Position numbers and translations under genes: made by a program | Notes under the pieces: model-generated | Database searches by the model: none | Told to the model about the DNA's origin: nothing | What the model saw: only the letters and a program-made list of their open reading frames with translations | NCBI GenBank assembly: GCA_001798075.1 | Contig: MGRG01000005.1 | Coordinates: 193,148 to 257,147, forward strand | From: Deltaproteobacteria bacterium RIFCSPHIGHO2_01_FULL_43_49 | GTDB lineage: Bacteria; UBA10199; SPLOWO2-01-44-7 | DNA: 64,000 bases | Direction of reading: 5' to 3' | In this document: positions 9,163 through 29,405 of the stretch, in pieces | Position numbering within the stretch: position 1 is the first letter of the stretch | Layout: every line of letters begins with the position of its first letter

Positions 9163-9248
9163 ATGATGGGTGGCCCGCAGTGTTTCTGTGGGGTTTAGTT
9201 AGGGGCCCCCACAGAAATACGGAGGGGCAGGACCCGTCATCTAAAAAT
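9163..9248. repeat. copy 1 of an 85-bp imperfect palindromic extragenic repeat family (orientation A)
   Basis: gggtggcccgcagtgtttctgtggggtttagttaggggcccccacagaaatacggaggggcaggacccgtcatc. Reverse complement of the copies at 12974 and 29320. Confidence 0.85.
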
Positions 9249-9251
9249 TAT

Positions 9252-9896
9252 ATGAAACCACGTTTTGTACGCATTGCTCGTGAGTTTATTCATCACCTCC
9301 CTTATTCCGCCGTGGGAGTTGCAGCGAGTTTAGGTATTCTTTTAGGTCTAGAAAAAATGGGTTGGGATAAAAACCCCGTTTTTTCTTTTCATGTCACCCA
9401 TCCCACACATATTTTTTTAAGCGCTATTGTGACCACCGCCATGTTTTGGAAGTATGAGCGCAAATTACTCAAGGCGGTATTCATTGGTTTTGTAGGAGTC
9501 ATTCCCATTTGTTCCATCAGCGATGTTTTCATGCCTTACTTGGGCGGATTACTTTTAAAAACACCCGTTCAGTTTCATCTCTGCGCGATTCAAGAACCTT
9601 GGCTTGTTTATCCCGCCTGTTTTTTGGGAATTTTGGGCGGACTTACCCTTTTGAAGTGGATCGAGAAGTTAACTGAATTTTGTCATCTAGCGCACGTCAT
9701 GGTGAGCTCACTAGCCTCTATATTGTATCTGATCTCCTTCGATATTTCTTTGTGGCATGTTTCTATGTTAGCCATCTTTGGAATTACTCTTTTGTCTGTT
9801 TGGATTCCTTGTTGTTTGAGTGATATCGCTTTTCCCTTAGCACTTGTCGAAGAGGGTCATGCACCTTGTTGCGGTCATCACCCCCATTCCTTCTAA
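9252..9896 (+). CDS. hypothetical integral membrane protein
   Basis: Multiple hydrophobic helices. The ORF-track start at 9180 lies inside the palindromic repeat, so the start was moved to the first ATG downstream (MKPRFVRIAREF). Confidence 0.5.
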   Translation: MKPRFVRIAREFIHHLPYSAVGVAASLGILLGLEKMGWDKNPVFSFHVTHPTHIFLSAIVTTAMFWKYERKLLKAVFIGFVGVIPICSISDVFMPYLGGLLLKTPVQFHLCAIQEPWLVYPACFLGILGGLTLLKWIEKLTEFCHLAHVMVSSLASILYLISFDISLWHVSMLAIFGITLLSVWIPCCLSDIAFPLALVEEGHAPCCGHHPHSF

Positions 9897-10795
9897 CGCT
9901 CCAGTGGGCCTTTCAATAACACTTCGTAATTGTGAGGAATAAGACTAAAAGAAAAGCCGTGCCAGTTGCTTTCATCAAAAAGTGGTTTGCAGGACTCTTC
10001 CCATTCCCTACTATTTTTGTGGACGAAATCTCCTTGCGGATTTCTGCAAAAATGCTGCTGTTCTGAAGCGATACGCGTAGCCACGGTTTCCTCTTTTCTT
10101 AAATATATATAGCCCTTTGACTCAATGGTAGCTTGAAGATTTAGCTGAGTCATTTGGGAAGGAAGAATATTTACAGGGCCTTCGATGAGTGATACCGAAA
10201 TTTTTGTTCGCTGTTTTTCAACGTCCTGCAAAATTTCTATATAGCCCCTTAAAGCACTTTCCGAGATGAATTCCATCTTCGTTTTATAATACAATTTCCC
10301 TTCAACCGCCATGTCTTCAAATTTTATGGAGTAATCTTTAAACCGGATGTTACTTGCCTCTGGTCCTGGAAGGTTTCCGGTTTTTTTCGAATTCCAGTCT
10401 ACTTCTGCAATTCTTTTCAACCCCCCCTCGTTTGTTATGTTCCAAATAGTCGCCGTTCGATCGTAGTAGGAATTTTGGCCTGTTCCATATTGGAGGTGAG
10501 CGAAATCAATCGATACTTTATAAATTGCTCCATCTCTTCCGGCGATTTTTCTCTCGAAAGGATATTGTATGGCTAAGTTGGAGGAGTCTTGAGGATAAAA
10601 ATCAAGAAATTTCAAGACAAAGTCTTGCCGCTTGGTGGGCACTTCAAGAAGGTTTGTTAAAAATTGAGTCAACTCTTGAGGGTTTTTTGTTTTTAGAGAT
10701 GTACTTTCCGATTGTGATTGGGAGGAATTGATAAAAAGGGATAAAAAAAGGAGGGCTAGCCCTCCTCTCCACAACATCGCTATTTTTGAACTCAC
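9893..10795 (-). CDS. hypothetical secreted protein
   Basis: Signal peptide MLWRGGLALLFLSLFINSSQS. No recognisable domain. Confidence 0.5.
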   Translation of the reverse strand: MSSKIAMLWRGGLALLFLSLFINSSQSQSESTSLKTKNPQELTQFLTNLLEVPTKRQDFVLKFLDFYPQDSSNLAIQYPFERKIAGRDGAIYKVSIDFAHLQYGTGQNSYYDRTATIWNITNEGGLKRIAEVDWNSKKTGNLPGPEASNIRFKDYSIKFEDMAVEGKLYYKTKMEFISESALRGYIEILQDVEKQRTKISVSLIEGPVNILPSQMTQLNLQATIESKGYIYLRKEETVATRIASEQQHFCRNPQGDFVHKNSREWEESCKPLFDESNWHGFSFSLIPHNYEVLLKGPLER

Positions 10796-10819
10796 AAGCT
10801 AATTATAACGAGGAAAAGC

Positions 10820-11731
10820 TTGGCAAAGAATGGGTTAAATAATACCTTTTATATTTCAATGAGTTGGGATAGGGATCGAGTGGCGGGTCTTGGGAACACC
10901 CACGACATTATGAGTGAAATAAAGAAACATTTAATTACACTTTCGAGCGATTTTGGGTCGGGAAACATCGGCTGTGGGGCGATGGAGGCGATAATTTTTG
11001 AAATCTGTCCTGAGGCCAAAGTCGTTCATTTGTGCCACACGATTAGAGGTTTTGACATCAAAGAAGGGGCCAGAATGTTGGAAGGTGTAGCGAAGCTGCC
11101 GATTGGTTTTCATGTGGGAGTTGTTGATCCAGGTGTTGGAACAAAACGAAAAGGAATTGCAATTCAAACCAAACGAGGTGATTTTTTGATCGGTCCCGAT
11201 AATGGTTTGTTAAGACCGGCTGCAGAATTTTTGGGTGGGATCATAAAAGCTTGGGAACTGTCTAACGATCAGTTTCATCGCAAACCGGTCTCTCCCATTT
11301 TTCACGGAAGAGATATTTTCGCACCGGTTGCCGCCTATCTTGCAAAAGGAATTTCGCCCGACGAATTAGGACCAAAAATAAATAGTGATGGACTCATTGC
11401 TGCCCCCTACCATGAAGCACTTTGGAATGGTGATCAAATTGAGGCCGAAGTGATCCATATTAATGGAAATGGCTCTGTTTTTTTGAATATCAAAGCAGAA
11501 GAATTTACAAAAAGGGCAAAACAAGGGGATAAAATAGCTTTTCACTTACCGCCAGGTACCAGGTACCACACGGTAAATTTTCAGAGGACTTTTGGGGAGG
11601 TGGCAAAAGGCGAACCAGTCATATTGAAAGACGATTTTGGCAGAATTGAACTCGCTATCAACCAAGACAATTTTGCTTTGACTTTTGATATCAAACGAGG
11701 GCAGAAATTGATTTTGAAAAAGGAGAAATAA
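10820..11731 (+). CDS. S-adenosyl-L-methionine hydroxide adenosyltransferase family protein (DUF62; fluorinase/chlorinase-like fold)
   Basis: SDFGSGNIGCGAMEA ... HVGVVDPGVGTKRKGIAIQTKRGDFLIGPDNGLL ... IHINGNGSVFLNIKAEEF. The true start is probably the internal MSEIKK near 10910. Confidence 0.8.
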   Translation: MAKNGLNNTFYISMSWDRDRVAGLGNTHDIMSEIKKHLITLSSDFGSGNIGCGAMEAIIFEICPEAKVVHLCHTIRGFDIKEGARMLEGVAKLPIGFHVGVVDPGVGTKRKGIAIQTKRGDFLIGPDNGLLRPAAEFLGGIIKAWELSNDQFHRKPVSPIFHGRDIFAPVAAYLAKGISPDELGPKINSDGLIAAPYHEALWNGDQIEAEVIHINGNGSVFLNIKAEEFTKRAKQGDKIAFHLPPGTRYHTVNFQRTFGEVAKGEPVILKDDFGRIELAINQDNFALTFDIKRGQKLILKKEK

Positions 11732-11964
11732 TGAGCAACATCAAATGTCTTCGTTGCGGTGCTGAAGCTACCCCACCCGATTTTGTTCCCTACAGCGGTC
11801 CTTTGAAAGAGGCCATTGTGAAACAAGTTTGCGGCCAATGCTGGGAAGAGTGGAAAAAAATGAGTGTGATGGTAGTCAATGAATATAAACTGACACCCTT
11901 TTTGCCCCAACATCGCGAAATTTTAGAACAACAGATGAAGGAATTTTTAAACCTCCAACTGTGA
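11731..11964 (+). CDS. yggX: Fe(II)-trafficking/oxidative damage protection protein YggX family
   Basis: 77 aa. IKCLRCGAEATPPDFVPYSGPLKEAIVKQVCGQCWEEWKKMSVMVVNEYKL...REILEQQMKEFL matches the YggX pattern (C..E...F.PYPG.LG..I...VS..AW..W...TM.INE.KL). The start overlaps the upstream stop (TAATG). Confidence 0.75.
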   Translation: MSNIKCLRCGAEATPPDFVPYSGPLKEAIVKQVCGQCWEEWKKMSVMVVNEYKLTPFLPQHREILEQQMKEFLNLQL

Positions 11965-12977
11965 GACCCAATCTAAATCTTCTCAAAAATGTTTTGAGTT
12001 TGCCCACGGCTCCTTTTCATGAACAAGCCGTTATCCATTTTATCAAAAGCTTTTGTGCCAAATTAGGTGTGGTCTGCAAGCAAGATCGTTTTGGCAATCT
12101 CAAAGCCATTTACAAAAGGGGGAAACAAAAACCGATTGCCTTTACAGCTCACATGGATCACCCAGGCTTTGAAGTGTTGCAGACTAATCGGTTAGGGGCA
12201 AAAGTTCGTTTGCTAGGAGGTGTTCCAGACAAATATTTTCTTAAAGCGCGGGTTGTTCTTGTTGACCAAGATGGTTTAACTAAAGGTCGTGTTTTAAAAA
12301 TTCTAAATAAAAAGAAAAGAGAGTTTTGGGTTCAAACAAAAAGACCTGTTCGAAAAAAAACCTTTGGCTATCTTGACTTGCCCGCTTTCCAGCTTCGCAA
12401 AGGAATGATCCACACCAAAGCAGCCGATAATCTGATGAGTGTCGCCATTCTTTTGAATCTCCTGGAAAAGCTTGTTCGGAAAAAAGCCAGGGCAAATGTC
12501 GTCTGCCTTTTCACGCGGGCTGAAGAAGTCGGTTTCATTGGGGCCTCAAAGGCAATTCAGAATCGGTTTTTGCCGCGAAATATCCCGATTGTTGTTTTGG
12601 AAACAAGTTCCGCCAAGGCTGGAAAAGTCGAGATTGGCAGTGGGCCCGTGCTTAGAGTAGGCGATCGCTTTTCCAGTTTTTCTTGGGAGATGGACTTGTG
12701 TTTAAGATTAGTAGCGCAAGAATTAAAATCAAAAGAAAAAAGTTTTGAGTATCAAAGGGGGCTTTTAGCCGGTGGGCGCTGCGAAGCAAGTCTTTATGTT
12801 GTCAAAAAATATCTTGTGGGAGGGCTGGCCCTTCCTTTGGGTAACTATCATAATGTCGGTGCCAAAAGTTATGCCACAGAATATGTGAGTCTAAAGGATT
12901 ATCAAAATTTGCTGAAGTGGTTGATCTTTCTGTCGGCCAATTTTCCAAAGACTTTAAAGAGGTTAATAAAAAAGTAG
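11961..12977 (+). CDS. M42 family metallopeptidase (glutamyl aminopeptidase/FrvX-like)
   Basis: AHMDHPGFEV active-site region and overall M42 layout. 4-bp overlap with yggX. Confidence 0.7.
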   Translation: MRPNLNLLKNVLSLPTAPFHEQAVIHFIKSFCAKLGVVCKQDRFGNLKAIYKRGKQKPIAFTAHMDHPGFEVLQTNRLGAKVRLLGGVPDKYFLKARVVLVDQDGLTKGRVLKILNKKKREFWVQTKRPVRKKTFGYLDLPAFQLRKGMIHTKAADNLMSVAILLNLLEKLVRKKARANVVCLFTRAEEVGFIGASKAIQNRFLPRNIPIVVLETSSAKAGKVEIGSGPVLRVGDRFSSFSWEMDLCLRLVAQELKSKEKSFEYQRGLLAGGRCEASLYVVKKYLVGGLALPLGNYHNVGAKSYATEYVSLKDYQNLLKWLIFLSANFPKTLKRLIKK

Positions 12978-13056
12978 CGGGTCCTGTCCCTCCGTGTTTC
13001 TGTGGGGGCCCCTAACTAAACCCCACAGCAAACACTCCGGGCCACCCGCTAGTTTT
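12974..13056. repeat. copy 2 of the 85-bp palindromic repeat family (orientation B)
   Basis: agcgggtcctgtccctccgtgtttctgtgggggcccctaactaaaccccacagcaaacactccgggccacccgct. Sits between convergent genes. Confidence 0.85.
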
Positions 13057-13067
13057 TTACTCATTTA

Positions 13068-14201
13068 TTAAAAAACGTAACCAAGTGATAAGCGATAGCT
13101 GGAGCTGGTTTCCCTGTTGTTTCTGTTTTCTCCTTGTGCCTCGAACCCAACAGAATAAGCCCCCAGAAATTCAAATTGGACTCCGCCACCACCAATGTGT
13201 GCCTTGTAATTCACAAAGGGGTTTCCGATTCGGCCTGCCTCAAAACCTCTTTGGGCATAAGAATAAAAACCATAAATGGATAGAAATTCTGTCGGCACCA
13301 CTTTGAGTTCGGCAAATCCTCCATGAAAATTTCTGGAGGTTGTCCCCACCATTAAATTTTGAAATTCGTAACCCCCACCAATCCGCAGGAATTCCATCGG
13401 TTCAAAAAATAGGGCCGGACGAAGCGTGTGCGTATTGGCGCGGGTGAAGTCTTGAAACCGGTAGTGAAATTCCGGCGTCACCTTCCAAATAGTATGAGCA
13501 ATGCCCACTTCGTAATTTTGTCTCGGAAGAATATCAACTTCCGGGGCAAACCCCAAACTCAAATCAAAACGCGTTTTTTCTTTCAGATAATAATGACCAA
13601 AGAGTCTTGTATCAAAACCATCTCTGCCGAAGCGCTGGATATAGGCACTATAAAGTCCCAAGCCATATGTCTTTTCTCTTTCGATTCGGATTTGTTGAAA
13701 CTCACCTTGAGTCTGCGACGAGTAAGAAGGATTTTCAGTGATATAACCACCTTCAATCACAATTCGTGATTTTCTCTCAAGTTGTGGTTGGACCGCTTCA
13801 CTCTCTTCGTTGCCAGGTTCTATTTTTTCAGCTTTATCAAAAAAATCTCTAGCCTTTTTTTGTTTGCCCATGGCCAGATAGGCCTTGCCTGTTCCCACTA
13901 GTGCCGGAACATTTTTAGAATCGAGCTCCAAGACTTTTTCATAAGTTTTAACCGCCTCTTCATAATTGCCTTGCCAATATTGGACTTGGGCCAGACCTGA
14001 GAGGGCCCCCAAGTTTTCGGGATCATGGTGTAAAACCCCCTCATAGAGGCTTTGTGCCCCCTCGTAGTCTCCTGCCTCCTCTTTTTCCTGGGCTTGGCTC
14101 ATTATCCTTTCCGAATCGCCTTTAGGAGAAGTGAAGCCATTGGAAAAAGGTAGGAGGCAAAAGCCAAAAACCATTATGAAAACAAGGAGTAATACACGCA
14201 T
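13068..14201 (-). CDS. TPR-repeat plus C-terminal outer-membrane beta-barrel protein (YaiO/PgaA/BcsC-like architecture)
   Basis: Signal peptide MRVLLLVFIMVFGFCLL. Three to four TPR units (YEGAQSLYEGVL ... YEEAVKTYEKVLELD ... GKAYLAMG). C-terminal alternating beta-strand region ending SLGYVF. Start set at the ATG at 14201, which is preceded by GGAGGAGG. Confidence 0.6.
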   Translation of the reverse strand: MRVLLLVFIMVFGFCLLPFSNGFTSPKGDSERIMSQAQEKEEAGDYEGAQSLYEGVLHHDPENLGALSGLAQVQYWQGNYEEAVKTYEKVLELDSKNVPALVGTGKAYLAMGKQKKARDFFDKAEKIEPGNEESEAVQPQLERKSRIVIEGGYITENPSYSSQTQGEFQQIRIEREKTYGLGLYSAYIQRFGRDGFDTRLFGHYYLKEKTRFDLSLGFAPEVDILPRQNYEVGIAHTIWKVTPEFHYRFQDFTRANTHTLRPALFFEPMEFLRIGGGYEFQNLMVGTTSRNFHGGFAELKVVPTEFLSIYGFYSYAQRGFEAGRIGNPFVNYKAHIGGGGVQFEFLGAYSVGFEAQGENRNNRETSSSYRLSLGYVF

Positions 14202-14296
14202 TTCATTTCCTCCTCCAGGGTTTAACCATATTTTGTTGCGAAAATCACGCAACTTTTTTCTAATTTGCTCGATAAAACCTAGGGAGCATAAAATCA

Positions 14297-15016
14297 ATGA
14301 ATAGCGGAGGACTAGTAACCATTTTTCAACTAGCTGTTCCACAACAGTTAGCCCTTTTAGAGACGGCAACGAATTTGCTTGCAGTCGATTTGAGTACCCT
14401 TGTTGCGGATGGGAATGAGGCCGGTTTGGCCTTCGCGCTGGCTCCTGCCGCAGATGTTTATGGAGAGGATCATTTACTGAGTAGGGCTAGAGAGATTGCA
14501 GGTTTAGCAAAAACAGATCCTGGCGAGGCAGCTGCAAGCAAACAAAGACTTGTAAGAGAGTTTGTCTCGTTGGTTGAGCAGTCTTCAGCTCCCAACCCCC
14601 CTCCACATCAGCTGATATATCTAAAAAGGGTTTTAGGTTTGATGGAGACGACAACAAGGGTTGTGCGTATGGGTATCGATGTTGCGAACGCCATCGCTTT
14701 AAACAATCAGTTGGAAAATGTTTTTCGGACTTTGCAGGAAAGGGGAATCCCCGTCGACATTTTCATTATCGACAGGGACCGCGAGGTAACGGTAAGAAGT
14801 AAATTAATTCACATTGAGGGAGATCCTTCAGGCACTCAAAGACGGATGATCGTGGAAGCCAAAGTAATTAAGGGGAGCATGGAAGGAGAACGCGATTCCT
14901 ATTCGGTAATTTTTTCCGACAGGACACACCCGTTACCTATGGAGCTTAGTAAAGATGTGGAACTCGGTAATCTTAGCTTTAACATCACCTTATTCATTGA
15001 TGGACTACTACTATAA
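14297..15016 (+). CDS. hypothetical protein, member B of a paralogous family (N-terminal module shared with 7298..8341)
   Basis: See 7298..8341. The C-terminal region differs. Confidence 0.55.
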   Translation: MNSGGLVTIFQLAVPQQLALLETATNLLAVDLSTLVADGNEAGLAFALAPAADVYGEDHLLSRAREIAGLAKTDPGEAAASKQRLVREFVSLVEQSSAPNPPPHQLIYLKRVLGLMETTTRVVRMGIDVANAIALNNQLENVFRTLQERGIPVDIFIIDRDREVTVRSKLIHIEGDPSGTQRRMIVEAKVIKGSMEGERDSYSVIFSDRTHPLPMELSKDVELGNLSFNITLFIDGLLL

Positions 15017-15028
15017 AAAGGAGATTTC

Positions 15029-15496
15029 TTGAGACGATATTTTTGCTGTTTGGTTTTGGTCCTGTTGGGATTTGTCAAAACACTGTCCGCGGATTCAGGT
15101 ATGGATCATGCCTTGACGACAACGGTTGCCAGAAAAACTTTGCAAGAGGTGATGATGGCGATTGCCAAAGATATCGAGGAGCTTCAAGGAGATTTTCCAC
15201 AATTAAAAAAATGGAATGATGCCGAAATTTCTCCCGAAGGAATTTATTACCAATATCATTACACAGCTGGGCGATATCCTTTTGCCGAAGAAGAGTTTGG
15301 AAAGAACGGATGCCATCTTGCCATCGATACAAAAGATCAGCTACAGGCATCAGCCTCTCCTCAAATCCTTGGCGAATTAAAACTGGGGATTTATTTGAAG
15401 TTTAAGGCCGTTGGGAAAGATGCGGAAGAGTTAAAAAGACTTATTCAAGAAATCGTTGCTAAACGTTTTGAAATGATCAGGAACCTAAACTCTTAG
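15029..15496 (+). CDS. hypothetical secreted protein
   Basis: Signal peptide MRRYFCCLVLVLLGFVKTLSA. No domain recognised. Confidence 0.5.
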   Translation: MRRYFCCLVLVLLGFVKTLSADSGMDHALTTTVARKTLQEVMMAIAKDIEELQGDFPQLKKWNDAEISPEGIYYQYHYTAGRYPFAEEEFGKNGCHLAIDTKDQLQASASPQILGELKLGIYLKFKAVGKDAEELKRLIQEIVAKRFEMIRNLNS

Positions 15497-15543
15497 GTAA
15501 GCTTCAAAGTTGCTATTTATCCAAAATTTGGTATCAAACCCAA

Positions 15544-15927
15544 ATGGCAGATCCTCTTATCCAAAAAGCCCTAGAGGCCAGAAAGAATGCCTATTCGCCT
15601 TATTCCAAATTTGCCGTGGGGGCGGCTTTGGAGGCCCAAGATGGAACAGTCTTCACTGGCTGCAATGTTGAAAATGCCTCCTATGGTTTGACAATCTGTG
15701 CGGAGAGGGTGGCATTGGCCAAAGCCATTTCTCAAGGGGTCACGAAATTTAAAAGGCTGGCAGTCGTTGCCGACTATCCAGAGCCGGTTCCGCCGTGTGG
15801 CATGTGTCGCCAAGCTTTGTTTGAGTTTGCGCCAGAGCTTGAATTGATTCTGGCCAATACCAAAGGGGAATCAGAAAAAACGATACTCTCCAAACTTCTT
15901 CCAAATGCCTTTCAACTGAAACGCTAG
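15544..15927 (+). CDS. cdd: cytidine deaminase
   Basis: CAERVAL ... PCGMCRQ zinc-binding motifs. 127 aa (tetrameric type). Confidence 0.92.
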   Translation: MADPLIQKALEARKNAYSPYSKFAVGAALEAQDGTVFTGCNVENASYGLTICAERVALAKAISQGVTKFKRLAVVADYPEPVPPCGMCRQALFEFAPELELILANTKGESEKTILSKLLPNAFQLKR

Positions 15928-15943
15928 GTTATTTTTTGCTCCA

Positions 15944-17116
15944 CTAGTATAAAAGGTAGGGCTTACGTTGTCTTACAAAAGAGGAAGAAGGTTCTGCCAC
16001 CCATTCTAAAAGTTCTCTCAAAGGAAGATGCTTTTCCAGTGCCTGGCGCACGGTTGCATCACCTGTTAATAAATCGATTGCCGGAATGTCTTCTATAAAT
16101 TCATAGGGCTCCAGTCTCCATTGGAAGCCTTTATCGTGATAGAGGGTGTACAAAGCCCATATCAAAGCAATACCGGTAACATAAGGCTTGAAAATTTCCC
16201 GATCCGTAACTTTCAGGCGAACACCAAAACATTTTTGACCTACCCATTTTTGGAGTGTCGGCGTGAATTCAACAGGCTCAAACTGAACTCCGGGCAGGCG
16301 AAATTCACTTAAGGATTCTAGACATTCTGCTGGTTTAACAAATGGAGCCCCCGTAATTTCAAATGGGATGTCTGTTCCTCTTCCCTCTGAGATGTTTGTC
16401 CCTTCCAGTAAACAAGTCCCCGGATACAATAGCGCTTGCAAAGGCGAGCGCATGTTTGGAGAGGGGTTGGTCCATTTCAAACCGGTTTGATCCCAAAACC
16501 ATTCGCGCTGCCAACCTTCCATTGGCATCACTGTCAGATCACAATTCAAATCTTCCGTGTCATTGATCATGCGGGCCATTTCGCCAATTGTCATCCCGTG
16601 CCGCACCGGCATTGGGTAGAGCCCCACAAAAGAAGTGTAGCCTTCTTTGTTGCTCTCCCCCTCAACAGAAAGACCATTAATTGGATTGGGCCTGTCACAA
16701 ACAATCACCTCTTTTTTATATTTAGCACAAGCTTCCATGCACATGGTGGTCGTCCAAATATAGGTGTAGTAGCGAGCTCCAACATCTTGCAAATCAATCA
16801 CCAAGCAGTCGATATTTTTAAGCATCTCTTCGGTTGGTTTCAGTTCCTTTTCGGAATGGCCATAAAGACTGTAAAGAGGCAACCCCGTTGGTTTGTGGGT
16901 GCCAGAGTGGACCGGCTCCATGTCTTGAGCTGAAGTAGTAATGCCGTGTTCGGGTCCAAAAAGGGTTGTGACTTTCCAATCTTTTGAGTCAACAAGTAAG
17001 TCCAGGATATGTTGGCCCTTTGAATTGACACTGGCTTGATGGCCCAAAATGCCAACTCTTTTTCCCTTCAATTTGTCTTTGAAATCTCTAGTTAAAATGT
17101 CGAGCCCAAGTAGCAT
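15944..17116 (-). CDS. DUF1343 family protein (exo-beta-N-acetylmuramidase NamZ-like)
   Basis: GLDILTRDF..LKGKRVGILGHQASV ... LFGPEHG matches the DUF1343 N-terminus. Confidence 0.75.
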   Translation of the reverse strand: MLLGLDILTRDFKDKLKGKRVGILGHQASVNSKGQHILDLLVDSKDWKVTTLFGPEHGITTSAQDMEPVHSGTHKPTGLPLYSLYGHSEKELKPTEEMLKNIDCLVIDLQDVGARYYTYIWTTTMCMEACAKYKKEVIVCDRPNPINGLSVEGESNKEGYTSFVGLYPMPVRHGMTIGEMARMINDTEDLNCDLTVMPMEGWQREWFWDQTGLKWTNPSPNMRSPLQALLYPGTCLLEGTNISEGRGTDIPFEITGAPFVKPAECLESLSEFRLPGVQFEPVEFTPTLQKWVGQKCFGVRLKVTDREIFKPYVTGIALIWALYTLYHDKGFQWRLEPYEFIEDIPAIDLLTGDATVRQALEKHLPLRELLEWVAEPSSSFVRQRKPYLLY

Positions 17117-17174
17117 GGCGGGATGCGCATATCATAACTTGCCTGGTTGTCAAAGTGTGCTATGGAAACCCGCC

Positions 17175-19131: not shown

Positions 19132-19199
19132 TGAAAATGACCTAAGCGCAAGTCAAAATGGGAGCAACTTTTCTCAAAATTTGCCGATAACTATAAGGA

Positions 19200-21639: not shown

Positions 21640-21700
21640 TGCTCCCCTCTTATCAAATTGATTTGGGCACCGCAACCGATTTTAAATCGCCGATTAGGAG

Positions 21701-21736
21701 TTGTTCTTCCCAGTGGCGAACCACTGGGAAGAACAA
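21701..21736. other. perfect 16-bp stem-loop with 4-nt loop (UUCG on the queF-sense strand)
   Basis: ttgttcttcccagtgg cgaa ccactgggaagaacaa. Sits in the divergent region between queF and the exonuclease gene. Confidence 0.7.
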
Positions 21737-21808
21737 TGCACCATACTATCGCGGCGTTTGCCAACAGCCACCGGCTGTTGTTTTCCGCCTTGATTTCCCT
21801 CGTTTTGG

Positions 21809-22417
21809 TTGATAAGCAGCTCTTCTATGTCTGGCCAAAACATTATTGTTTTAGACCTAGAAACCAAAAGGACCTTTGAAGATGTTGGTGGAAGGGAAAA
21901 CTTGGGCGAATTGGGGGTTTCTTTGGTGGGGGTTTATTCTTATCTTCATGGCGACTATCAAGCTTTTTGGGAAGATGATTTTCCAAAACTCTTGAGTCTG
22001 CTCGTTAGCAAACCGTTGGTAGTTGGCTTCAATCAGAAACGTTTTGATCTGCCTGTTTTGCAGCCTTATTTTAAAAATTTTGATCTCAAAAGTTTACCAA
22101 TACTCGATATTTTGGATGAGTTGACCAAAACTTTGGGCCACCGAGTCAGTTTGGATAGTGTGGCGCAGGCAACACTGGGGACTAGAAAAAGTGGCCATGG
22201 TTTGGATGCGATTCGCTACTGGAACCGAAAGGAACTCGATAAATTAAAAAAATATTGTTTGGATGATGTACGCATTACAAAAGAGGTTTATGAATATGGG
22301 GCCAAGCATGGTGAACTTATATTTATGGATAAATTCAGCACCTCAAAATTAAAAGCGCCGGTTTCTTGGAAGTTGCAAACTAACGAAAAGGAAGATAAAC
22401 AGTATTCTCTTTTTTAA
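21809..22417 (+). CDS. DEDDy-type 3'-5' exonuclease domain protein
   Basis: IIVLDLETK (Exo I), FNQKRFDLPVL (Exo II-like), and the Y-x3-D motif YCLDD near the C-terminus. Confidence 0.55.
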   Translation: MISSSSMSGQNIIVLDLETKRTFEDVGGRENLGELGVSLVGVYSYLHGDYQAFWEDDFPKLLSLLVSKPLVVGFNQKRFDLPVLQPYFKNFDLKSLPILDILDELTKTLGHRVSLDSVAQATLGTRKSGHGLDAIRYWNRKELDKLKKYCLDDVRITKEVYEYGAKHGELIFMDKFSTSKLKAPVSWKLQTNEKEDKQYSLF

Positions 22418-22420
22418 ATT

Positions 22421-23332
22421 ATGACGGATGATTTTATCATTATTGGTGGTGGGCCCGCTGGATGTTCGGCTGCCCTTTTTGCGGCTCGTGTGAAAAGAAA
22501 AGTGGTCATGATCCACAAAGGAACAACCCCTCTTATTCATTCTTTCAATTGGTTGCTCCCTGGTTTTCCGAATGGATTGGGTCCCGCCGAGTGGCTTAAA
22601 AACATGCGTTCCCAAATTGAAACTTCCGGATTTACCTTTGTGGAAGAAGAGGTTACCCAAGCAGCGCTTGGGGCCAGTGTGAAACAAATTATCACCAGCT
22701 CTGGAAAGGTTTGGGAAGGCCCCGCCATCATTTTGGCAACCGGTTGTTATGACCGAACCGGCTTTATAGAAGGAGAGGCAAAATTTGTCGGTCACGGCGT
22801 TTTTTACAACGCCTATCAAGATGCCTCTTTGTGTGATGGTCAGAGTGTGGTTGTGGAAGGAAAGAATGATCAGGCAATTAGAGAAGCCCTTTATCTTTCT
22901 CGTTTTGCCAGCAAAATCTATTTTATTGTTCCTGCCATGAAATTAGAAGCGGATGAAAAATTGATTGGCGCTCTTCGGGCCAATCCCAATGTTAATCTTC
23001 TCTTGAGTGCCAGCATTAAAAAAATCGAAGGGGAAAATCAACTGGAAGGGGTAACTGTGTTGAGCGCTGGTGAAGAAAAAAAGATTGAGGCAAAAGCGGT
23101 CTTCCTTTTTGCCCGCCAGAGCAAACCAAAATATGATTTTCTCAAGGGAACTATTGAAATTTCTGAAGAAGGTTGTGTTTTGGTGGATGATCAAATGATG
23201 ACTTCAATTCCTGGTGTTTTTGCCTGTGGGGATATGCTCTCCGGTGCGCCACAACTCCAGTTTGTATCCGCCGCGCAAGGTTTAGTTGCCGCCATGAATG
23301 CCGATCGATATCTTTCCAATCCTAATCTGTGA
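22421..23332 (+). CDS. NAD(P)/FAD-dependent oxidoreductase (thioredoxin-reductase-like fold)
   Basis: N-terminal FAD motif IIGGGPAGCSAA. Second dinucleotide-binding region. GVFACGDM near the C-terminus. Confidence 0.75.
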   Translation: MTDDFIIIGGGPAGCSAALFAARVKRKVVMIHKGTTPLIHSFNWLLPGFPNGLGPAEWLKNMRSQIETSGFTFVEEEVTQAALGASVKQIITSSGKVWEGPAIILATGCYDRTGFIEGEAKFVGHGVFYNAYQDASLCDGQSVVVEGKNDQAIREALYLSRFASKIYFIVPAMKLEADEKLIGALRANPNVNLLLSASIKKIEGENQLEGVTVLSAGEEKKIEAKAVFLFARQSKPKYDFLKGTIEISEEGCVLVDDQMMTSIPGVFACGDMLSGAPQLQFVSAAQGLVAAMNADRYLSNPNL

Positions 23333-23946
23333 CCCCACGGGCCCTCATTTTTGATTTTGACGGCGTGTTGGTTGATTTAGAACCCTTGCACATGAAAGCC
23401 TGGCAAGAAGTTTTAAAACCGATTGATCTTACTTTTTCGGACAAAGACTATGAAGAGCGTTATTTGGGACTCAATGACAGAGATTTTTTAGCCCTCCGTT
23501 TTAAAGAGGCGGGCAAAAAACTTAGTCAGACCCTTTGCAATGAATTGATCCAAAAAAAAGAACACAAAACAACAAAGTTTTTTTCAAAAGAGATACCACT
23601 CATTGATGGGGTTCAAGATTTTTTGAAAAAAGTTTCTCAAAAATATCCGTTAGCTATTGTTACGGGTGGGCTTTCTAATGAAGTCTATTTTGTTTTGGAT
23701 CATTTAAAATGGAGACCTTTGTTTAAAATTATTATTACTTCTGGCGATGTTCAAAAGGGCAAACCCGACCCCGAAGGATTTTTGAAGGCGTACGAAAAAT
23801 TAAAAAATCTTTGTGAGTGGAACCCCCCTTTGCAAAAATCAGAATGCCTTATTTTTGAAGACTCTCAGTATGGCATGGAAGCTGCCAAGAGAGCGGGCAT
23901 CCCATTTGTGCAAGTTCGCGGGAGTCTTAGAGGTTTTGATTATTGA
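23329..23946 (+). CDS. HAD-IA family hydrolase (beta-phosphoglucomutase-like phosphatase)
   Basis: LIFDFDGVLVD motif I. K..DP motif. EDS.YG motif IV. Confidence 0.85.
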   Translation: MTPRALIFDFDGVLVDLEPLHMKAWQEVLKPIDLTFSDKDYEERYLGLNDRDFLALRFKEAGKKLSQTLCNELIQKKEHKTTKFFSKEIPLIDGVQDFLKKVSQKYPLAIVTGGLSNEVYFVLDHLKWRPLFKIIITSGDVQKGKPDPEGFLKAYEKLKNLCEWNPPLQKSECLIFEDSQYGMEAAKRAGIPFVQVRGSLRGFDY

Positions 23947-25790
23947 ATGACTTTTAAAAGTTCCAGGACCGCCTCATATTTTCCAAACGGCGGGAAGATA
24001 TAAACTCCTTTGACCCCAGTCATGTCATGGGCTTCTTTGAGGGCTTCTTGGGCGACTTTAAGACCGATTTCCCGCTGGGCCTCTTTTGTAGCGGCCTTTT
24101 TCAATTGATCCATAACGGAGTTGGGGACTTGCATCCCTGGCACTTCATTATGCAAAAACTCTGCGTTTTTGAGGCTGGCTAGAGGCAAGATGCCAACAAA
24201 AAATGGAATTTTTAAAAAAGAACGAGACTTGGCTAAAAATTTATCGAGGAGTTTCGATTCATAAACCGGTTGTGAAAAAATAAACTCGGCTCCCGCTTCG
24301 ATTTTTTTGCGTAGTCTTTCCACTTCTATATCCATATCAATCGCTCCAGGGTTGCAACCACATCCAATAACAAGCGAAGTAGCTTCACCGATCGGGCGAT
24401 TCGCAAAATCCAAACCATGATTCAAATTGTTGATGAAATGGATGAGTCCAATGGCATCGACATCAAAGACAGCCGTCGCATCGGGATATTCCCCCATTTT
24501 TGGAGGGTCTCCCGTAATGACCAAAATATTTTTAAGGCCAACCGCATTGGCACCAATCAGATCCATTTGCATCCCGAGCAAGTTACGATCGCGGCAGCAA
24601 TAATGAATCACGGTTTCCATCCCTAGCTGTTGTTTGATGAGAACCGACATTGCTATGGGGCTCATGCGGGCCATGGCCCTGGGACCATCTGCGATGTTGA
24701 TCACATCAACCCCATGCTCTTTTAAGAATTTAGCCCCTTCGATTGCCCTGCTGGCATCCAGACCTTTGGGAGGATCAATCTCTACGCTCACGGCAAACTT
24801 TTTTCCAAGAATGGCACCAAAAGCACTTCTTTTTTCAACCGGCATCGGAGTTATTTTTTTAATTTCTTCCGTGGGGGTTAAAGTGATAATGGATTCAATT
24901 CGTTTGGTCGGTCTTAGCGTTTTTAAGTAGCGCTTCATCTCTTTGATCATCTCGGGAGTTGTTCCGCAGCAGCCACCAACCAGATGGGCACCCGCTTGAA
25001 CAAGCCGCCTTGCGAACTCCGCCATGTATTCTGGTGTGGCCAAATAAAGAAGCCGATTTTGTTTGACCTGAGGAAGCCCCGCGTTTGGAAAAGCCGATAA
25101 TGGTTTTGTGGCAACCGGAGTCATCAGCTTAATCGCCTCCAAAACACCGACTGGGCCGGTACAACAATTCACACCGACGACATCAGCCCCCCATCCACAC
25201 ATCAAGCGACATGCCTCGGCCGGTTGAATGCCTTTGAAACCTTCTTCTCCTTCATATTTCAGCGTGACTTGTGTGACGATAGGAAGATTTTTTTTAACCG
25301 ATCTCGCCGCTTCATAGGCTAATTTTAATTCATCAAGATTCAGGAAAGTTTCCAAGATAATCAAATCCACCCCTCCTTCGACTAGACCTTGAATCTGTTC
25401 TGCAAAAATAGCTTTGATGTCATTATCTCCCAAAACACTAGCCTGTTTGAATGTCCAAGAAACGGGCCCCACCGCACCCGCAATATAGGCCTGTCCCTTA
25501 GCGGCATCTTTGGCGATTTTTGCACCGGCTCGGTTGATCTCTTTAACTTTATTTTCAAATCCAAAAGCGGCCAATGCCGGGCGGTTGGCGGTAAAGGTGT
25601 TGGTTTCCAAAACCTGGGCACCGGCATTGAGATAATCGAGATGAATATCGCGGATTAAAGTCGGGCTAGATAAATTAAGTTCATCATAGTTGCGGTTCAA
25701 AAAGATGCCCCGGCCATAGATCTCGGTCCCCATTGCCCCGTCGCCCAAGACACCTTCTTCCGACAGCTTTTCCAGAAACGGCTTGTCCAT
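23940..25790 (-). CDS. bifunctional homocysteine S-methyltransferase / 5,10-methylenetetrahydrofolate reductase
   Basis: The N-terminal roughly 290 aa is an S-methyltransferase (Hcy-binding) domain (GAMGTEI ... NTFTANR ... GGCCGT). The C-terminal roughly 290 aa is MTHFR-like. Confidence 0.85.
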   Translation of the reverse strand: MDKPFLEKLSEEGVLGDGAMGTEIYGRGIFLNRNYDELNLSSPTLIRDIHLDYLNAGAQVLETNTFTANRPALAAFGFENKVKEINRAGAKIAKDAAKGQAYIAGAVGPVSWTFKQASVLGDNDIKAIFAEQIQGLVEGGVDLIILETFLNLDELKLAYEAARSVKKNLPIVTQVTLKYEGEEGFKGIQPAEACRLMCGWGADVVGVNCCTGPVGVLEAIKLMTPVATKPLSAFPNAGLPQVKQNRLLYLATPEYMAEFARRLVQAGAHLVGGCCGTTPEMIKEMKRYLKTLRPTKRIESIITLTPTEEIKKITPMPVEKRSAFGAILGKKFAVSVEIDPPKGLDASRAIEGAKFLKEHGVDVINIADGPRAMARMSPIAMSVLIKQQLGMETVIHYCCRDRNLLGMQMDLIGANAVGLKNILVITGDPPKMGEYPDATAVFDVDAIGLIHFINNLNHGLDFANRPIGEATSLVIGCGCNPGAIDMDIEVERLRKKIEAGAEFIFSQPVYESKLLDKFLAKSRSFLKIPFFVGILPLASLKNAEFLHNEVPGMQVPNSVMDQLKKAATKEAQREIGLKVAQEALKEAHDMTGVKGVYIFPPFGKYEAVLELLKVIQ

Positions 25791-25810
25791 ATTTAATAAT
25801 CTGATGAAAA

Positions 25811-25895
25811 AGTAGCGGGTGCCCCGGAGTGTTTGTTGTGGGGTTTAGTTAGGGGCCCCCGCAAAAACACGAAGGGGCAGGCCCTGCCACTTTTT
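25811..25895. repeat. copy 3 of the 85-bp palindromic repeat family (orientation A)
   Basis: agcgggtgccccggagtgtttgttgtggggtttagttaggggcccccgcaaaaacacgaaggggcaggccctgccac. Confidence 0.85.
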
Positions 25896-25951
25896 TATCG
25901 ACTCCTCAAAGAGGGTTAGTGGAAAGAAAACCTCAAGGCAAGGGGTTTTAT

Positions 25952-26593
25952 TTATACCCCTCTCACTCCAAAAAAATAATCTTTGCCTTGAGCTGCGGCG
26001 GCCAAATAGGGATTGGTTTTTTTCTGATGGCCCAGGGTATCCGTTGGTTTGGGGCCATAGTCATGGCCAGGATAGACAATAATATCATCTGGCATTTGGG
26101 TTAGCCTTTTTAGTGTCTCAAACATTTTTTCTGGGCTGGAACCTGGAAGATCGACCCTTCCACAGCCATCCACAAATAAAACATCCCCTGTGATCAGATG
26201 ATTTTCAACGAGATAACAAATCATTCCTGGTGTATGGCCTGGCATATGAAGGCACTTTACAGAAAGATTCCCGACTTTGATGATTTCATCGGTCGCAACA
26301 GCCTTGACTGACACTCCCATTTCTTCAATCGCACTGATCTCAAATCCATGAACATAGACTGGAACCTTTAGTTTTTGATAAGCTGTCTCCAATTCTTGAA
26401 TGTGATCAAAATGGGTGTGGGTGAGTAGAATTTTTTCAATCTGCCAGGCTTCTTTTGTTGCAACGGCCATGACTTTTTCAGACTCAAATCCAGGATCGAC
26501 ATACGCCGCCTTTTTGGTGCCGGTGTCCACAATCAGATACGAAAAGTTCGCCATCGGACCCACTGCGATTTGTTTGATCAATACCGGTTGCAT
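25952..26593 (-). CDS. MBL-fold metallo-hydrolase (hydroxyacylglutathione-hydrolase-like)
   Basis: THTHFDH motif. Downstream Asp/His ligands (GHTPG, GDVLF). Confidence 0.85.
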   Translation of the reverse strand: MQPVLIKQIAVGPMANFSYLIVDTGTKKAAYVDPGFESEKVMAVATKEAWQIEKILLTHTHFDHIQELETAYQKLKVPVYVHGFEISAIEEMGVSVKAVATDEIIKVGNLSVKCLHMPGHTPGMICYLVENHLITGDVLFVDGCGRVDLPGSSPEKMFETLKRLTQMPDDIIVYPGHDYGPKPTDTLGHQKKTNPYLAAAAQGKDYFFGVRGV

Positions 26594-26665
26594 TTGATAA
26601 TCCGTTTATGCTAGGAAGCGCCCACTTGTAAAGTACCGTGTGGTACCAGGTACCTGGTGGTAACA

Positions 26666-27139
26666 ATGATCAAAGCTCCAATGACCCCTGAGGGGCATAA
26701 AAAGTTGCAAGAAAAGCTGAAACATTTGAAGGCCGTCGAACGCCCAAAAGTCATACATGCCATTGAAATAGCCAGGGGCCATGGCGACCTTTCTGAAAAT
26801 GCAGAATACGATGCCGCCAAAGAAGCCCAAGCTCACTTGAGCCGAGAAATCGCAGAGACTGAAGATAGGCTTTCAAGAGCCGAAGTGATTGATCCCTCCA
26901 AGCTCAATCATGAGAAAATATCGTTTGGAGCCACTGTGACTATAGAAGAGACAGAAAGTGGCACAAAGGTGACCTATCAGATTGTTGGCGCCCATGAATC
27001 GGATGTTAAATTGGGTAAAATCTCTATCGAATCACCCATCGCGAAGGCCTTAATTGGCAAACAAGCGGGTGATGCCACGCAGGTCCACACCCCAAAAGGG
27101 GTCAGAGAATACGAAGTTCTTATCATAGAATACAAATAA
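26666..27139 (+). CDS. greA: transcription elongation factor GreA
   Basis: MIKAPMTPEGHKKLQEKLKHLKAVERPKVI. C-terminal FKBP-like domain. The ORF-track start is a GTG at 26657, but the ATG at 26666 matches the canonical GreA N-terminus. Confidence 0.95.
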   Translation: MIKAPMTPEGHKKLQEKLKHLKAVERPKVIHAIEIARGHGDLSENAEYDAAKEAQAHLSREIAETEDRLSRAEVIDPSKLNHEKISFGATVTIEETESGTKVTYQIVGAHESDVKLGKISIESPIAKALIGKQAGDATQVHTPKGVREYEVLIIEYK

Positions 27140-27141
27140 TC

Positions 27142-27162
27142 TTTGACAGCAAGATTGTCAAA
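27142..27162. other. 7-bp stem hairpin directly downstream of greA, weak or non-canonical terminator candidate
   Basis: tttgaca gcaagat tgtcaaa, followed by an A-run rather than a T-run on the + strand. Confidence 0.3.
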
Positions 27163-27304
27163 AAAATGACGTTTACCCACCAAAAGAGGTATTTCCTTAC
27201 CCGCCTGTAGCTAAGCGCCGGATAACGCCCATCAACAAGTCCTAGAAATCACTCTAAATTTTCGAAATCCCGAGAAAATTCCAATTGGCATACCGCTTGC
27301 TCCT

Positions 27305-27805
27305 TTGAGGGGGGAGGTTTCCAAAATGGGGTTTTTAAAGGCTTTTACAATTATTACTTTATGGATTCTCCTCTCCTTTTTTTGGGTCAGTATGGGTCAG
27401 TCTAAAGAGATGGAATGTAAAAATTATGGAGAAGTGGAGAGCTGGCTTGGACCCCATGTGGTGTTGCGTGATTGGTACCAATTCTATGTTGCAAGACATG
27501 CCTGCCTGCCACAACAGGAAGCAGAATTTTTCAAGGCCCTCGCAAGTAGCGAGACTTTATCAACTAAACTCAATCAAGCCAAAGTAACCTTCGACCAGTT
27601 TTACATCCCGATTGCAAATTTGATTGATATCGATTGGAAAAAAGTCAAAGAAGTCAAAGCTCAAAATATTCAGAGTGATCTGACATTGATTGATATCAGC
27701 CTCAAAAAAACACTCTCTAAAATGTCAACATTGGATCAAGATTATTTCCGCGCCGTTGTTCTTTTGGACTTACCCAGCGAGTTTGCTTTCATCTATCCTG
27801 AATAG
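27305..27805 (+). CDS. hypothetical exported protein
   Basis: Internal start MGFLKAFTIITLWILLSFFWVSMG looks like a signal or anchor sequence. No domain recognised. Confidence 0.45.
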   Translation: MRGEVSKMGFLKAFTIITLWILLSFFWVSMGQSKEMECKNYGEVESWLGPHVVLRDWYQFYVARHACLPQQEAEFFKALASSETLSTKLNQAKVTFDQFYIPIANLIDIDWKKVKEVKAQNIQSDLTLIDISLKKTLSKMSTLDQDYFRAVVLLDLPSEFAFIYPE

Positions 27806-27846
27806 ACTTGTCTTAAAATCTAAACAATCCTATATAGCCTCCTCCT

Positions 27847-29304
27847 ATGAATTGGCGTGCCCTTGCAAAACTTTTAGGAATCTTTTCTTGCGCCGTTGGT
27901 TTTTTAATTGGTTTATCCGCGCTCGTTTCTTTGCTTTTTCATGAAAGAGAGGCCCTTTGGCTTGCCCTTTCCGCACTCATTCCTCTTATTGGTGGCTTGG
28001 GGTTGATGCAGCTTTCTTGGGAAACGGATGTGGAAAATTTGTCCCACCGTGAGGCCACTCTTCTCATTGCCTTGTCGTGGCTGGTGGCTATTCTGTGGGG
28101 CGCCTTTCCTTACTATTTAACACGAGCCTTTGGCGATTATTCACCCCTTTCTTTTTTGAATTGTCTTTTTGAAGCAACCTCTGGATTCACGGCAACCGCC
28201 GCTTCCGTTTTGATTCCACACATTGCCTTGGAAAATCTCTCTCGCGGTCTTATTTTTTGGCGCTCCATGAGCCAATGGTTAGGGGGTTTAGGGATTATTC
28301 TAATTGCTTTGTTGTATTTGCCGTTGATTCGCGCCGGTGGGATGGAACTTTTTCAAACCAGCTCCATTGTGAGAGAAAGACTGCGCACCAAAGTAGGAGA
28401 GACATCCCGAACAGTTTTGCTCATCTATTTGAGTTTTACACTGTTGGAAGTGATTGTATTGAAGTTAGGTGGGATGGGGTTATTTGACGCCCTCTGCCAC
28501 AGTTTTTCAACCATTTCTTCTGGCGGTTTTTCCACACAGACATCCAACATTGGTGGATATAACAGCTTGTTCATCGAAATGACCCTCATTATTTTTATGA
28601 TTTTAGGCACAACCAACTTCGCCCTTCATTATTCCTTTCTCCAAAAAGATTGGCTGGCCTATTGGAAGAGCTTTGAGTTGCGGCTTTATCTGGGGGTATT
28701 GTTAGTAGCAATTTTGGCTGTTGGAATTAACCTTAAGGCAAACGGGGTCTCCAATCATTGGAGAGAGGCTATTTTTAATACCGTTTCGATTGGATCGACA
28801 ACCGGTTTTTGGAATGCGGATGTCAGTTTGTGGCCTTCTTTTTCGAGGGCGATTTTGTTGATCTTGATGTTTGTTGGTGGGACCGTTGGTTCTACCTCGG
28901 GCTCGATCAAGTGTTTTCGCATGGGGCTACTCATCAAATATGCCTATCGTGAAATTTTTAGAATCATTCACCCCGCAGGGTTTACCCCCGTGAAATTGGA
29001 AGGAAGAGTCGTGGATAGAGAGATCTTAGAGGGAGTGGCCGCTTTCTTTTTTCTCTATATGATCATCTTTACCGCAGGTTCCTTGATTATGCAGGCCTTA
29101 GGGTTCGAAATGATGGTGGCCGCCTCCAGTGTTGCGGCGGCCCTAGGGGGCGTGGGGCCCGGGTTTCATGAATTGGGGGCGATGGGGGGCTATTATAATG
29201 TGCCGGTTTTGGGAAAGATTACGCTGATGTGTTGTATGATCTTGGGGCGTGTCGAAATTTTCCCTATCCTCGTTGTAATCTCTAGGGAATTTTGGAGAAA
29301 ATAG
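27847..29304 (+). CDS. trkH: TrkH/KtrB family potassium transporter
   Basis: 485 aa. Repeated M1-P-M2 units with selectivity-filter-like GFxxTG/GGxxxG segments (TSGFTATA, SSGGFSTQ, STTGFWN, GGTVGSTSGS). Confidence 0.9.
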   Translation: MNWRALAKLLGIFSCAVGFLIGLSALVSLLFHEREALWLALSALIPLIGGLGLMQLSWETDVENLSHREATLLIALSWLVAILWGAFPYYLTRAFGDYSPLSFLNCLFEATSGFTATAASVLIPHIALENLSRGLIFWRSMSQWLGGLGIILIALLYLPLIRAGGMELFQTSSIVRERLRTKVGETSRTVLLIYLSFTLLEVIVLKLGGMGLFDALCHSFSTISSGGFSTQTSNIGGYNSLFIEMTLIIFMILGTTNFALHYSFLQKDWLAYWKSFELRLYLGVLLVAILAVGINLKANGVSNHWREAIFNTVSIGSTTGFWNADVSLWPSFSRAILLILMFVGGTVGSTSGSIKCFRMGLLIKYAYREIFRIIHPAGFTPVKLEGRVVDREILEGVAAFFFLYMIIFTAGSLIMQALGFEMMVAASSVAAALGGVGPGFHELGAMGGYYNVPVLGKITLMCCMILGRVEIFPILVVISREFWRK

Positions 29305-29319
29305 GTGGATTGGCGAAAA

Positions 29320-29405
29320 ATTAGCGGGTCCTGTTCCTCCGTGTTTCTGTGGGGGCCCCTAACCAAACCCCACAGCAAACACTCCGGACCACCCGCTAAT
29401 TTTTT
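29320..29405. repeat. copy 4 of the 85-bp palindromic repeat family (orientation B)
   Basis: agcgggtcctgttcctccgtgtttctgtgggggcccctaaccaaaccccacagcaaacactccggaccacccgct. Confidence 0.85.

Follow-up and report, generated by a model that had tools for sequence, protein, structure and literature searches.

A lineage-specific family of interspersed hairpin repeats with a conserved apex, covarying arms and concentric nesting

Four copies of an imperfect palindrome of about 85 bp had been predicted in a 64,000-nt stretch of Deltaproteobacteria bacterium RIFCSPHIGHO2_01_FULL_43_49 (assembly GCA_001798075.1, contig MGRG01000005.1, positions 193,148 to 257,147; hereafter the window), and the locus raises the question of what this repeat is and how it came to be multiplied. 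Inspection of the sequences located all four copies where they had been placed, two on the plus strand (12974-13056 and 29320-29405) and two on the minus strand (9163-9248 and 25811-25895). The hairpins were longer than predicted, reaching 9153-9250, 12969-13057, 25807-25895 and 29316-29404 (copies 1 to 4), and the flank agcgggt...acccgct, described as common to all copies, was present in copies 2 and 4, while copy 1 had gacgggt...acccatc and copy 3 ggcaggg...acccgct. Whichever strand was folded, each of the four gave a long imperfect hairpin, as expected (ΔG -43 to -53 kcal/mol; z -4.2 to -8.5 relative to shuffles), and all four were intergenic. The 25-nt apex motif GTGGGGGCCCCTAACTAAACCCCAC occurred four times in the window at no more than one mismatch, two per strand (expected 0.00, from 100 dinucleotide-preserving shuffles), and a covariance model trained on 43 copies, with its filters disabled, returned exactly four copies in the 64 kb, at 92-109 bits (next best match, 19 bits). 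With moderate confidence, we read the family as a lineage-specific, non-autonomous, selfish hairpin repeat of the REPIN, ERIC or MITE (miniature inverted-repeat transposable element) kind, with a unit of ~97 nt that includes the arms.

The repeat was dispersed well beyond the window and has expanded in this one lineage. Thirty-seven exact core matches were found in 30 JGI metagenome loci, unrelated loci that resembled the window solely inside the repeat. The contigs with the exact 23-mer included nine long (70-474 kb) and two short ones, copies being present on at least 11 contigs, and a profile search of the window and related metagenome contigs raised the number to 46 copies, which come to 44 without redundant ones. 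On the long contigs the exact motif had a density of approximately 1 per 18-100 kb, and when 10 kb were added on each side of the window a fifth copy appeared on the same scaffold, ~6 kb to the left (L115, 17748-17843). Taken together, density and fifth copy suggest a genome-wide number on the order of 100, in agreement with the high copy number that the original prediction had expected. An NCBI protein from "Deltaproteobacteria bacterium RIFCSPLOWO2_12_FULL_44_12" matched the TrkH of the window at 100% identity, and the window belongs to a 321-kb ENA scaffold (ANAN16-1_SAMN03842437), which places it in the metagenome-assembled genome of an uncultured bacterium from the Rifle aquifer. The host lineage is without a close genome among GTDB species representatives, and a genome scan with MetE did not place it, the best identity being 48% and the matches spread over several phyla.

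That the family had not been described before was borne out by the searches. The core 23-mer had no exact match in GTDB (one genome for each of 185,579 species) and the core motif none in IMG/VR, and a full copy had no blastn match in plasmids or phages, nor (at word size 11) in 5,426 complete Escherichia coli genomes, so that a known enterobacterial, plasmid or phage repeat was rejected. A known RNA family was rejected likewise: Rfam gave no match at gathering score in the 64-kb window, and in E-value mode nothing credible around the copies, the best match over any copy being Plastid-psbJ-1 (22.5 bits; gathering score, 62; E=3.9). Integron attC sites, CRISPR repeats and tRNA-derived elements were also discarded (arrays and R-box ends were lacking, as was any match to tRNAs or Rfam).

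The unit consisted of a ~97-nt hairpin, made up of a 69-nt core (GGGTCCTGTCCCTCCGTGTTTYYGTGGGGGCCCCTAACTAAACCCCACRRCAAACACTCCGGGCCACCC; ends GGGTCCTG…GGCCACCC) and outer arms. The core was built with fixed internal loops (CCT/C and CTCC/TCC), a single bulged C and an apical loop of 13 nt, and its mean pairwise identity was 93% (97% in the apical loop, 94% in the internal loops and bulged C, and 91% in the core stems), values that are partly inflated for core and apex by the retrieval of loci through an exact apex motif. The arms (10 bp per side) were 42% identical between copies and 80% Watson-Crick paired within a copy. When pairs were counted on a structure specified from the minimum-free-energy fold, 92.6% of cells were paired, relative to 82.4% in shuffles and 41-56% when partners were slid, and double (compensatory) changes were found in 173 cells against 58 in shuffles. 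Covariation was seen at 10 of the 14 outer pairs, and at the inner pairs 38-66, 39-65 (U-A/C-G) and 37-68.

Arms were sorted into class A ((G)GTGAAAAAGTAGY-core-RCTACTTTTTCAC(C), which includes window copies 2-4), class B (TTGGAGCTTCG-core-CTTCGCTCCAA) and class C (TGGAGTGGC-core-ACCACTCCA). Across the 44 copies the five bases 5' of the core varied (GTAGC, GTAGT, TTAGC, GTGGC, GTAAC, ATGAC, GCGAC, TAAAC, CTTCG and others), and GTAGT, ATGAC and GTGGT were each found at several different loci, which indicates that the arms travel with the core as part of the multiplying unit. Arm variants were joined by compensated transitions, from GTAGC/GCTAC to GTAGT/ACTAC, GTGGT/ACCAC and GTGGC/GCCAC, and uncompensated intermediates were also visible. 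In one copy (L026, 9858-9953) the class B left arm was CAAAC opposite CTTTG, where class B usually has CTTCG opposite CTTCG; three simultaneous changes towards complementarity look like templated correction within the hairpin rather than stepwise mutation. No target-site duplication was seen at the core boundary, save CTTCG in one class B composite lineage, or at the outer boundary of class A (GGTGAAAAAGTAG..CTACTTTTTCACC). At L007 (1590-1645, minus strand), two tandem partial motifs resembling the left arm (GTGACGGGTCAGAAAA and TGATGGGTCAGAAAG) preceded the real arm CGACGGGG.

The core was also found concentrically inside other palindromic repeats (alignment A2). These shells were L1 (CTTCTCCGACCTTTGCGAAAAACG...GGAGCTTCGGGG / ACCCCTTCGCTCCAATCATT...CGTTTTTCGCAGGGG), L2 (GTTGAAAATGACGGG / CCGTCATTTTCAAC) and L3 (TGGAGTGGCGGGT / ACCCACCACTCCACC), the last homologous to the inner part of L1, and the combinations in the alignment were L1 around the core, L1 around L2 and the core, L1 around L2, L3 and the core, L1 around L2 and other cargo, and a one-sided hybrid (L014). 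Each nested unit started with GGGnYYT and ended with ..ACCC, and each composite, including one of 251 nt, folded as a single concentric hairpin. A composite in the window itself (204..400, no strand assigned) had the L1 shell TGCGAAAAACG..TTGGAGCGAAGGGG / CCCCGAAGCTCCA..CATTTTTCGCA and the L2 shell GTTGAAAATGACGGG / CCTGTCATTTTCAAC at 259-346. Its cargo (274-331) was a different sequence of ~58 nt, absent from all fetched loci, that had only its termini in common with the core (on the minus strand, left GGGCCTGC.. and right ..GACCACCC). At 40874-41041, arms of 42 nt (71% complementary), with class-A-like ends TGGTGAAAAAGTCGC / GCGACTTTTTCATCA, held yet another cargo. Decay was seen as internal-deletion derivatives: at L019 (7449-7503) exactly the inner hairpin was gone, at L010 (3049-3119) the deletion was asymmetric, and at L016 (1145-1215) the element was nearly empty, with mismatched arms. 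Neither empty shells nor class-A-form terminators lacking the core were found in the window or the loci (~0.3 Mb); an apparent match at L016 (814/862) was coding sequence.

Class B and C copies had a further neighbour. A second imperfect palindromic repeat of ~260 nt (GGGGYGCTCCGAACTAT...GGGCAGGAG..GGGGTG...CACCCC..CTCCTGCCC; L028 866-1120 and L030 3882-4137) adjoined them in at least six loci (L028, L030, L004, L011, L013 and L026), and the resulting composite of ~415 nt was 80-92% identical between loci.

On crude open reading frame (ORF) calls, all copies of the family were intergenic, approximately 26 between co-directional, 11 between divergent and 3 between convergent genes. Their neighbours were housekeeping genes (dxr, rseP, tsaB, groES), and in housekeeping clusters such as dxr-rseP-tsaB a copy often almost filled the spacer, with 0-20 nt left per side. 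An orientation bias relative to transcription was tried and rejected as not significant: 16 copies were in sense and 10 in antisense (p=0.33), and the co-directional class A copies were 8 sense to 2 antisense (p=0.11; 9 to 2 with the fifth copy). No transposase was found beside the examined copies (20 neighbouring ORFs scanned) or in the window, and no RAYT (Y1 HUH) gene in those 20 ORFs, the window or the Pfam-annotated genes of L001, L115 and L116, together <10% of the genome.

Two syntenic relatives at ~73% TrkH identity (L112, GCA_023265595.1; L114, GCA_030648035.1), located through TrkH homologues of which a further one was closer (78% identity), had no copy in 33 kb. The junction between the gene for a metallo-beta-lactamase (MBL)-fold hydrolase and that for a methylenetetrahydrofolate reductase (MTHFR) fusion measured 161 nt in the window, where it holds copy 3, 0 nt in L112 and 31 nt in L114. 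The relatives are too diverged for intergenic alignment, and it is from spacer length alone that we infer an insertion of copy 3. At the 3' end of trkH, L114 had an ordinary bidirectional terminator.

Under the selfish-repeat reading, the whole ~97-nt hairpin would multiply with its arms, and the conserved, asymmetric 69-nt centre would probably be the recognition determinant of the copying enzyme. The outer 10-14 bp of the stem would need pairing only, and so the arms would drift by compensated changes into sub-lineages. The lack of target-site duplication and of sequence-fixed terminal repeats, together with the conserved irregularities of the stem, points by analogy to a mechanism acting on the hairpin in single-stranded DNA and supplied in trans, like that of IS200/IS605 or RAYT Y1 transposases, rather than to cut-and-paste by a DDE enzyme; IS200/IS605- and RAYT-type enzymes need a stem mismatch for binding and cleavage (PMC3333891). 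Copies would land in intergenic DNA, often flush with stop codons, and at the dyad centre of other palindromic repeats, the nesting suggesting that other hairpins are favoured landing sites. Landing at the dyad centre would build concentric 'Russian-doll' composites, later shrunk by deletions across the hairpin into mini derivatives. The sub-class with A5...T5 arms (copies 2-4) would gain the form of a bidirectional intrinsic terminator as a by-product.

Several points weigh against this account. Neither an autonomous partner nor any type of transposase came to light, with ~0.3 Mb of the lineage available and 20 neighbouring ORFs scanned, and no precise empty site was found in the relatives, at their ~73% amino-acid identity. 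The covariation counts are of copies rather than of independent events, and the motif by which loci were retrieved was the exact 23-nt apex. Wobble cells numbered 52 G.T against 33 A.C, with 33 of the G.T cells at one pair, a distribution that does not settle which strand is functional. Lastly, the gap in divergence between core and arms fits about as well with either of two other explanations, namely that the core alone moves and was recently inserted into older hairpins, or that selection by the host maintains the copies.

Were the core alone mobile (GGGT...ACCC, 69 nt), it would insert at the apex of pre-existing hairpins, among them terminator-like palindromes and other palindromic repeats, and the arms would be target DNA. 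Such an origin would suit arms that differ so widely between copies around a near-constant core (42% against 93% identity) and yet are self-complementary, as well as nesting that is always centred on the dyad, with nested units from GGGnYYT to ..ACCC, and shells that are the same around different cargo at 204-400 and 40874-41041 of the window. Core subtypes (CT-AG, TT-AA and TC-GA) cut across the shell classes, in class B the core stands between two copies of CTTCG, a 5-bp direct repeat, within the palindrome TTGGAG..CTCCAA, as the duplication of a loop would leave it, and there is a precedent in REP-targeting insertion sequences such as IS1397 (PMC1525189). However, ~0.3 Mb held no empty shell, the window had no core-less A5-stem-T5 hairpins and terminator-like sites only at chance frequency, and identical arm variants at different loci mean that the arms move with the core; the CTTCG repeat, moreover, is limited to one composite lineage, the other classes being without a direct repeat. 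We regard movement of the core alone as unlikely. Also improbable, to a slightly greater degree, is a related and undescribed mechanism in which the conserved 69-nt core either inserts, directed by structure, at hairpin apices or gains new, perfectly complementary arms by fill-in of a 5'-extended hairpin. Were it to hold, the concentric palindromes would be 'growth rings', with earlier targets or flanking DNA preserved in the arms, and the element could serve to probe how hairpins are extruded in vivo.

Three of the four window copies (2-4) look like bidirectional terminators, judging from an A-tract, a stable hairpin and T5-6 on both strands, a form shared by other class A copies and missing in copy 1 and in classes B and C. 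This raises the possibility that the copies are host cis-elements (bidirectional Rho-independent terminators or stabilisers of mRNA 3' ends) under selection for RNA structure, with repetition incidental. Class A copies lie 0-20 nt past stop codons, the fifth copy stands between a stop codon and the promoter/CIRCE element of groES, and copy 1, which has no T-tracts, is the sole window copy in a divergent promoter region; the ordinary bidirectional terminator that follows trkH in L114 and the 8 to 2 excess of sense copies in co-directional class A (9 to 2 with the fifth) agree with the same idea. On the other hand, T-tracts are lacking in classes B and C and in copy 1, about a third of class A copies are beside gene 5' ends in divergent regions (on the crude ORF calls), and many copies occupy 10-20-nt gaps in conserved operons (dxr-rseP-tsaB), where a strong terminator would be harmful. 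Neither orientation bias was significant (16 to 10, p=0.33; class A, p=0.11), a terminator has no need of a 69-nt conserved core with fixed loops, and nesting and deletion derivatives are the behaviour of a repeat. Motifs of the intrinsic-terminator consensus were in general near chance level (26 against 24 and 38 against 26 expected, in two 20-kb scans of the window), which suggests that this organism does not commonly use canonical terminators. A host-element origin seems to us improbable; terminator activity of copies 2-4 is plausible as a side effect. More doubtful still is a core that represents a structured RNA transcribed from one strand, either a non-coding RNA gene in many copies or a cis-regulatory RNA. 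The covariation strongly supports a hairpin, the loops are conserved above the stems, and pair 25-79 has a conserved T.G wobble that only the plus strand tolerates. Yet Rfam gave no match, copies are in both orientations relative to neighbouring genes and have no accompanying conserved promoter, A.C mismatches are nearly as frequent as G.T, the fold is almost equally good on both strands, and there are nested palindromes and deletion derivatives.

If the family is a selfish hairpin repeat, as we prefer to read it, REPINs are the known family that it works most like. A REP (repetitive extragenic palindromic) unit is an imperfect palindrome of 20-60 nt, marked by a strongly conserved GTAG on the 5' side of the stem foot (PMC3333891), a REPIN consists of two conserved inverted REPs around a less conserved spacer (PMC3116915), and REPINs and REP-BIME elements are mobilised by RAYT (TnpA_REP) Y1 transposases (PMC3116915, PMC3333891). 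Both REPINs and the present repeat are intergenic and lineage-specific, in tens to hundreds of copies, and both form a hairpin of ~100 nt in single-stranded DNA or RNA with conserved stem mismatches. Complementary stem changes between copies, a lack of target-site duplication, higher-order clusters and deletion derivatives are likewise common to the two, and some class A arms here have GTAG...CTAC. The conserved unit here is, however, 69 nt long (~97 with arms), with GTAG in a minority of arms, and its half-elements are not convincing REP palindromes. The pattern of conservation is also reversed: in REPINs the inverted REP 20-40-mers are conserved and the apex spacer is variable, whereas here the apex (by which copies were ascertained) is the most conserved part and the arms are the least. 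A single-copy RAYT gene flanked by repeats goes with REPINs; none was found in the DNA sampled here (<10% of the genome).

The ERIC/IRU elements of Enterobacteria are 127-bp imperfect palindromes. They and the present family are both imperfect palindromes of ~100 bp in intergenic DNA that is often transcribed, both vary in length through internal deletions and through insertions at set positions within the element, and neither has a known transposase. ERIC/IRU elements belong to another host phylum, however, the concentric, multi-layer nesting is more elaborate in the present family, and there is no sequence similarity (5,426 E. coli genomes). In MITEs the terminal inverted repeats are conserved in sequence and match a parent insertion sequence, and there is a target-site duplication (TA for Correia elements). 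The Correia/NEMIS elements of Neisseria resemble the repeat in being small, non-coding, palindromic and dispersed, and both can supply neighbours with terminators or processing sites, whereas the arms here are 42% identical between copies and no duplication was seen; no parent insertion sequence carrying the arm ends was found in the window or the loci. The only precedent found for dyad-centred nesting was in the insertion sequences that target REPs (IS1397, PMC1525189; ISPpu9, PMC12288879; and the wider IS110 family), which are also mobile DNA inside pre-existing palindromic repeats, although they are 1-2 kb long and encode a transposase, where the units inserted here are hairpins that code for nothing and measure 69 to ~200 nt. 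The label REP/MITE-like in the original prediction is therefore apt as a likeness (an intergenic, multi-copy hairpin with complementary changes) and fails as an assignment, the family having no conserved GTAG, inverted REP doublet, target-site duplication or conserved terminal inverted repeats. It is an undescribed family of bacterial interspersed palindromic repeats, a strict member of neither REPIN, ERIC nor MITE, and it is unusual in its conserved apex, covarying arms and concentric nesting.

The repeat matters to annotation in that it creates spurious ORFs and ORF extensions, supplies the stop codon of at least one gene, probably shapes transcript 3' ends and can break or confuse metagenome assemblies. 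With a conserved apex, arms constrained in structure only, no target-site duplication and nesting, the family also offers a clean natural dataset on how hairpin repeats are recognised and copied, and, given the scan of a complete genome, it could help to identify the enzyme responsible.

The copies can also be described one by one. Copy 1 (9153..9250, minus strand; core 9168-9235; arms TTTTTAGATGAC / ATCATCTAAAAA) lay between divergent genes, for an enoyl-CoA hydratase (minus strand) and a 214-aa ORF (plus strand). It had T's upstream and A's downstream of the hairpin, the A and T runs being swapped relative to class A, and the hairpin is thus without a U-tract on either strand. The GTG start at 9180 was a mechanical one, as had been suspected, and the true start of the ORF downstream is likely the ATG at 9252. 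Copy 2 (12969..13057, plus strand; core 12979-13047; class A arms AAAAAGTAGC / GCTAGTTTTTT) was situated between convergent genes, and the TAG stop (12975-12977) of an M42-like peptidase ORF (11961..12977) fell inside its left arm, so that the repeat sets the last residues and the stop of that ORF. Copy 3 (25807..25895, minus strand; core 25817-25885; class A arms AAAAAGTGGC / GCTACTTTTTC) was found in sense orientation 3' of the MBL-fold hydrolase gene and 5' of the gene for the bifunctional homocysteine S-methyltransferase/MTHFR fusion. Copy 4 (29316..29404, plus strand; core 29326-29394; class A arms AAAAATTAGC / GCTAATTTTTT) started 12 nt past the trkH stop codon, also in sense orientation, and the ORF 29193..29426 (minus strand) over it was, again as suspected, mechanical. 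The fifth copy stood between the stop codon of a DUF507 gene and the promoter/CIRCE element of groES; a CIRCE-like operator (TTAGCACTC-N9-GAGTGCTAA; L115 17655-17690, scaffold_17) was seen upstream of groES, directly downstream of the copy.

Further observations concern the rest of the window. Between trkH and a P-type ATPase gene there was a 361-aa ORF (29459-30544) without a Pfam or NCBIfam match; in the relative L112 the ATPase gene follows trkH after 5 nt, which makes this ORF lineage-specific. A weak Rfam match to poplar-1 sRNA inside the greA ORF (26836-26965; 24 bits; gathering score, 110; E=0.018) was taken as chance. The intergenic region of the 40874-41041 palindrome also contained perfectly complementary arms of 36 nt, 100 nt apart (40689-40860), with no match to the arm among the fetched loci. 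Other palindromes were a perfect inverted repeat at 41658-41727 (AGGTGCCAGGTACCTTTT / AAAAGGTACCTGGCACCT, 34 nt apart) and a perfect 16-bp hairpin at 21701-21736 (TTGTTCTTCCCAGTGG-CGAA-CCACTGGGAAGAACAA), located ~70 nt upstream of the ORF 21809..22417.

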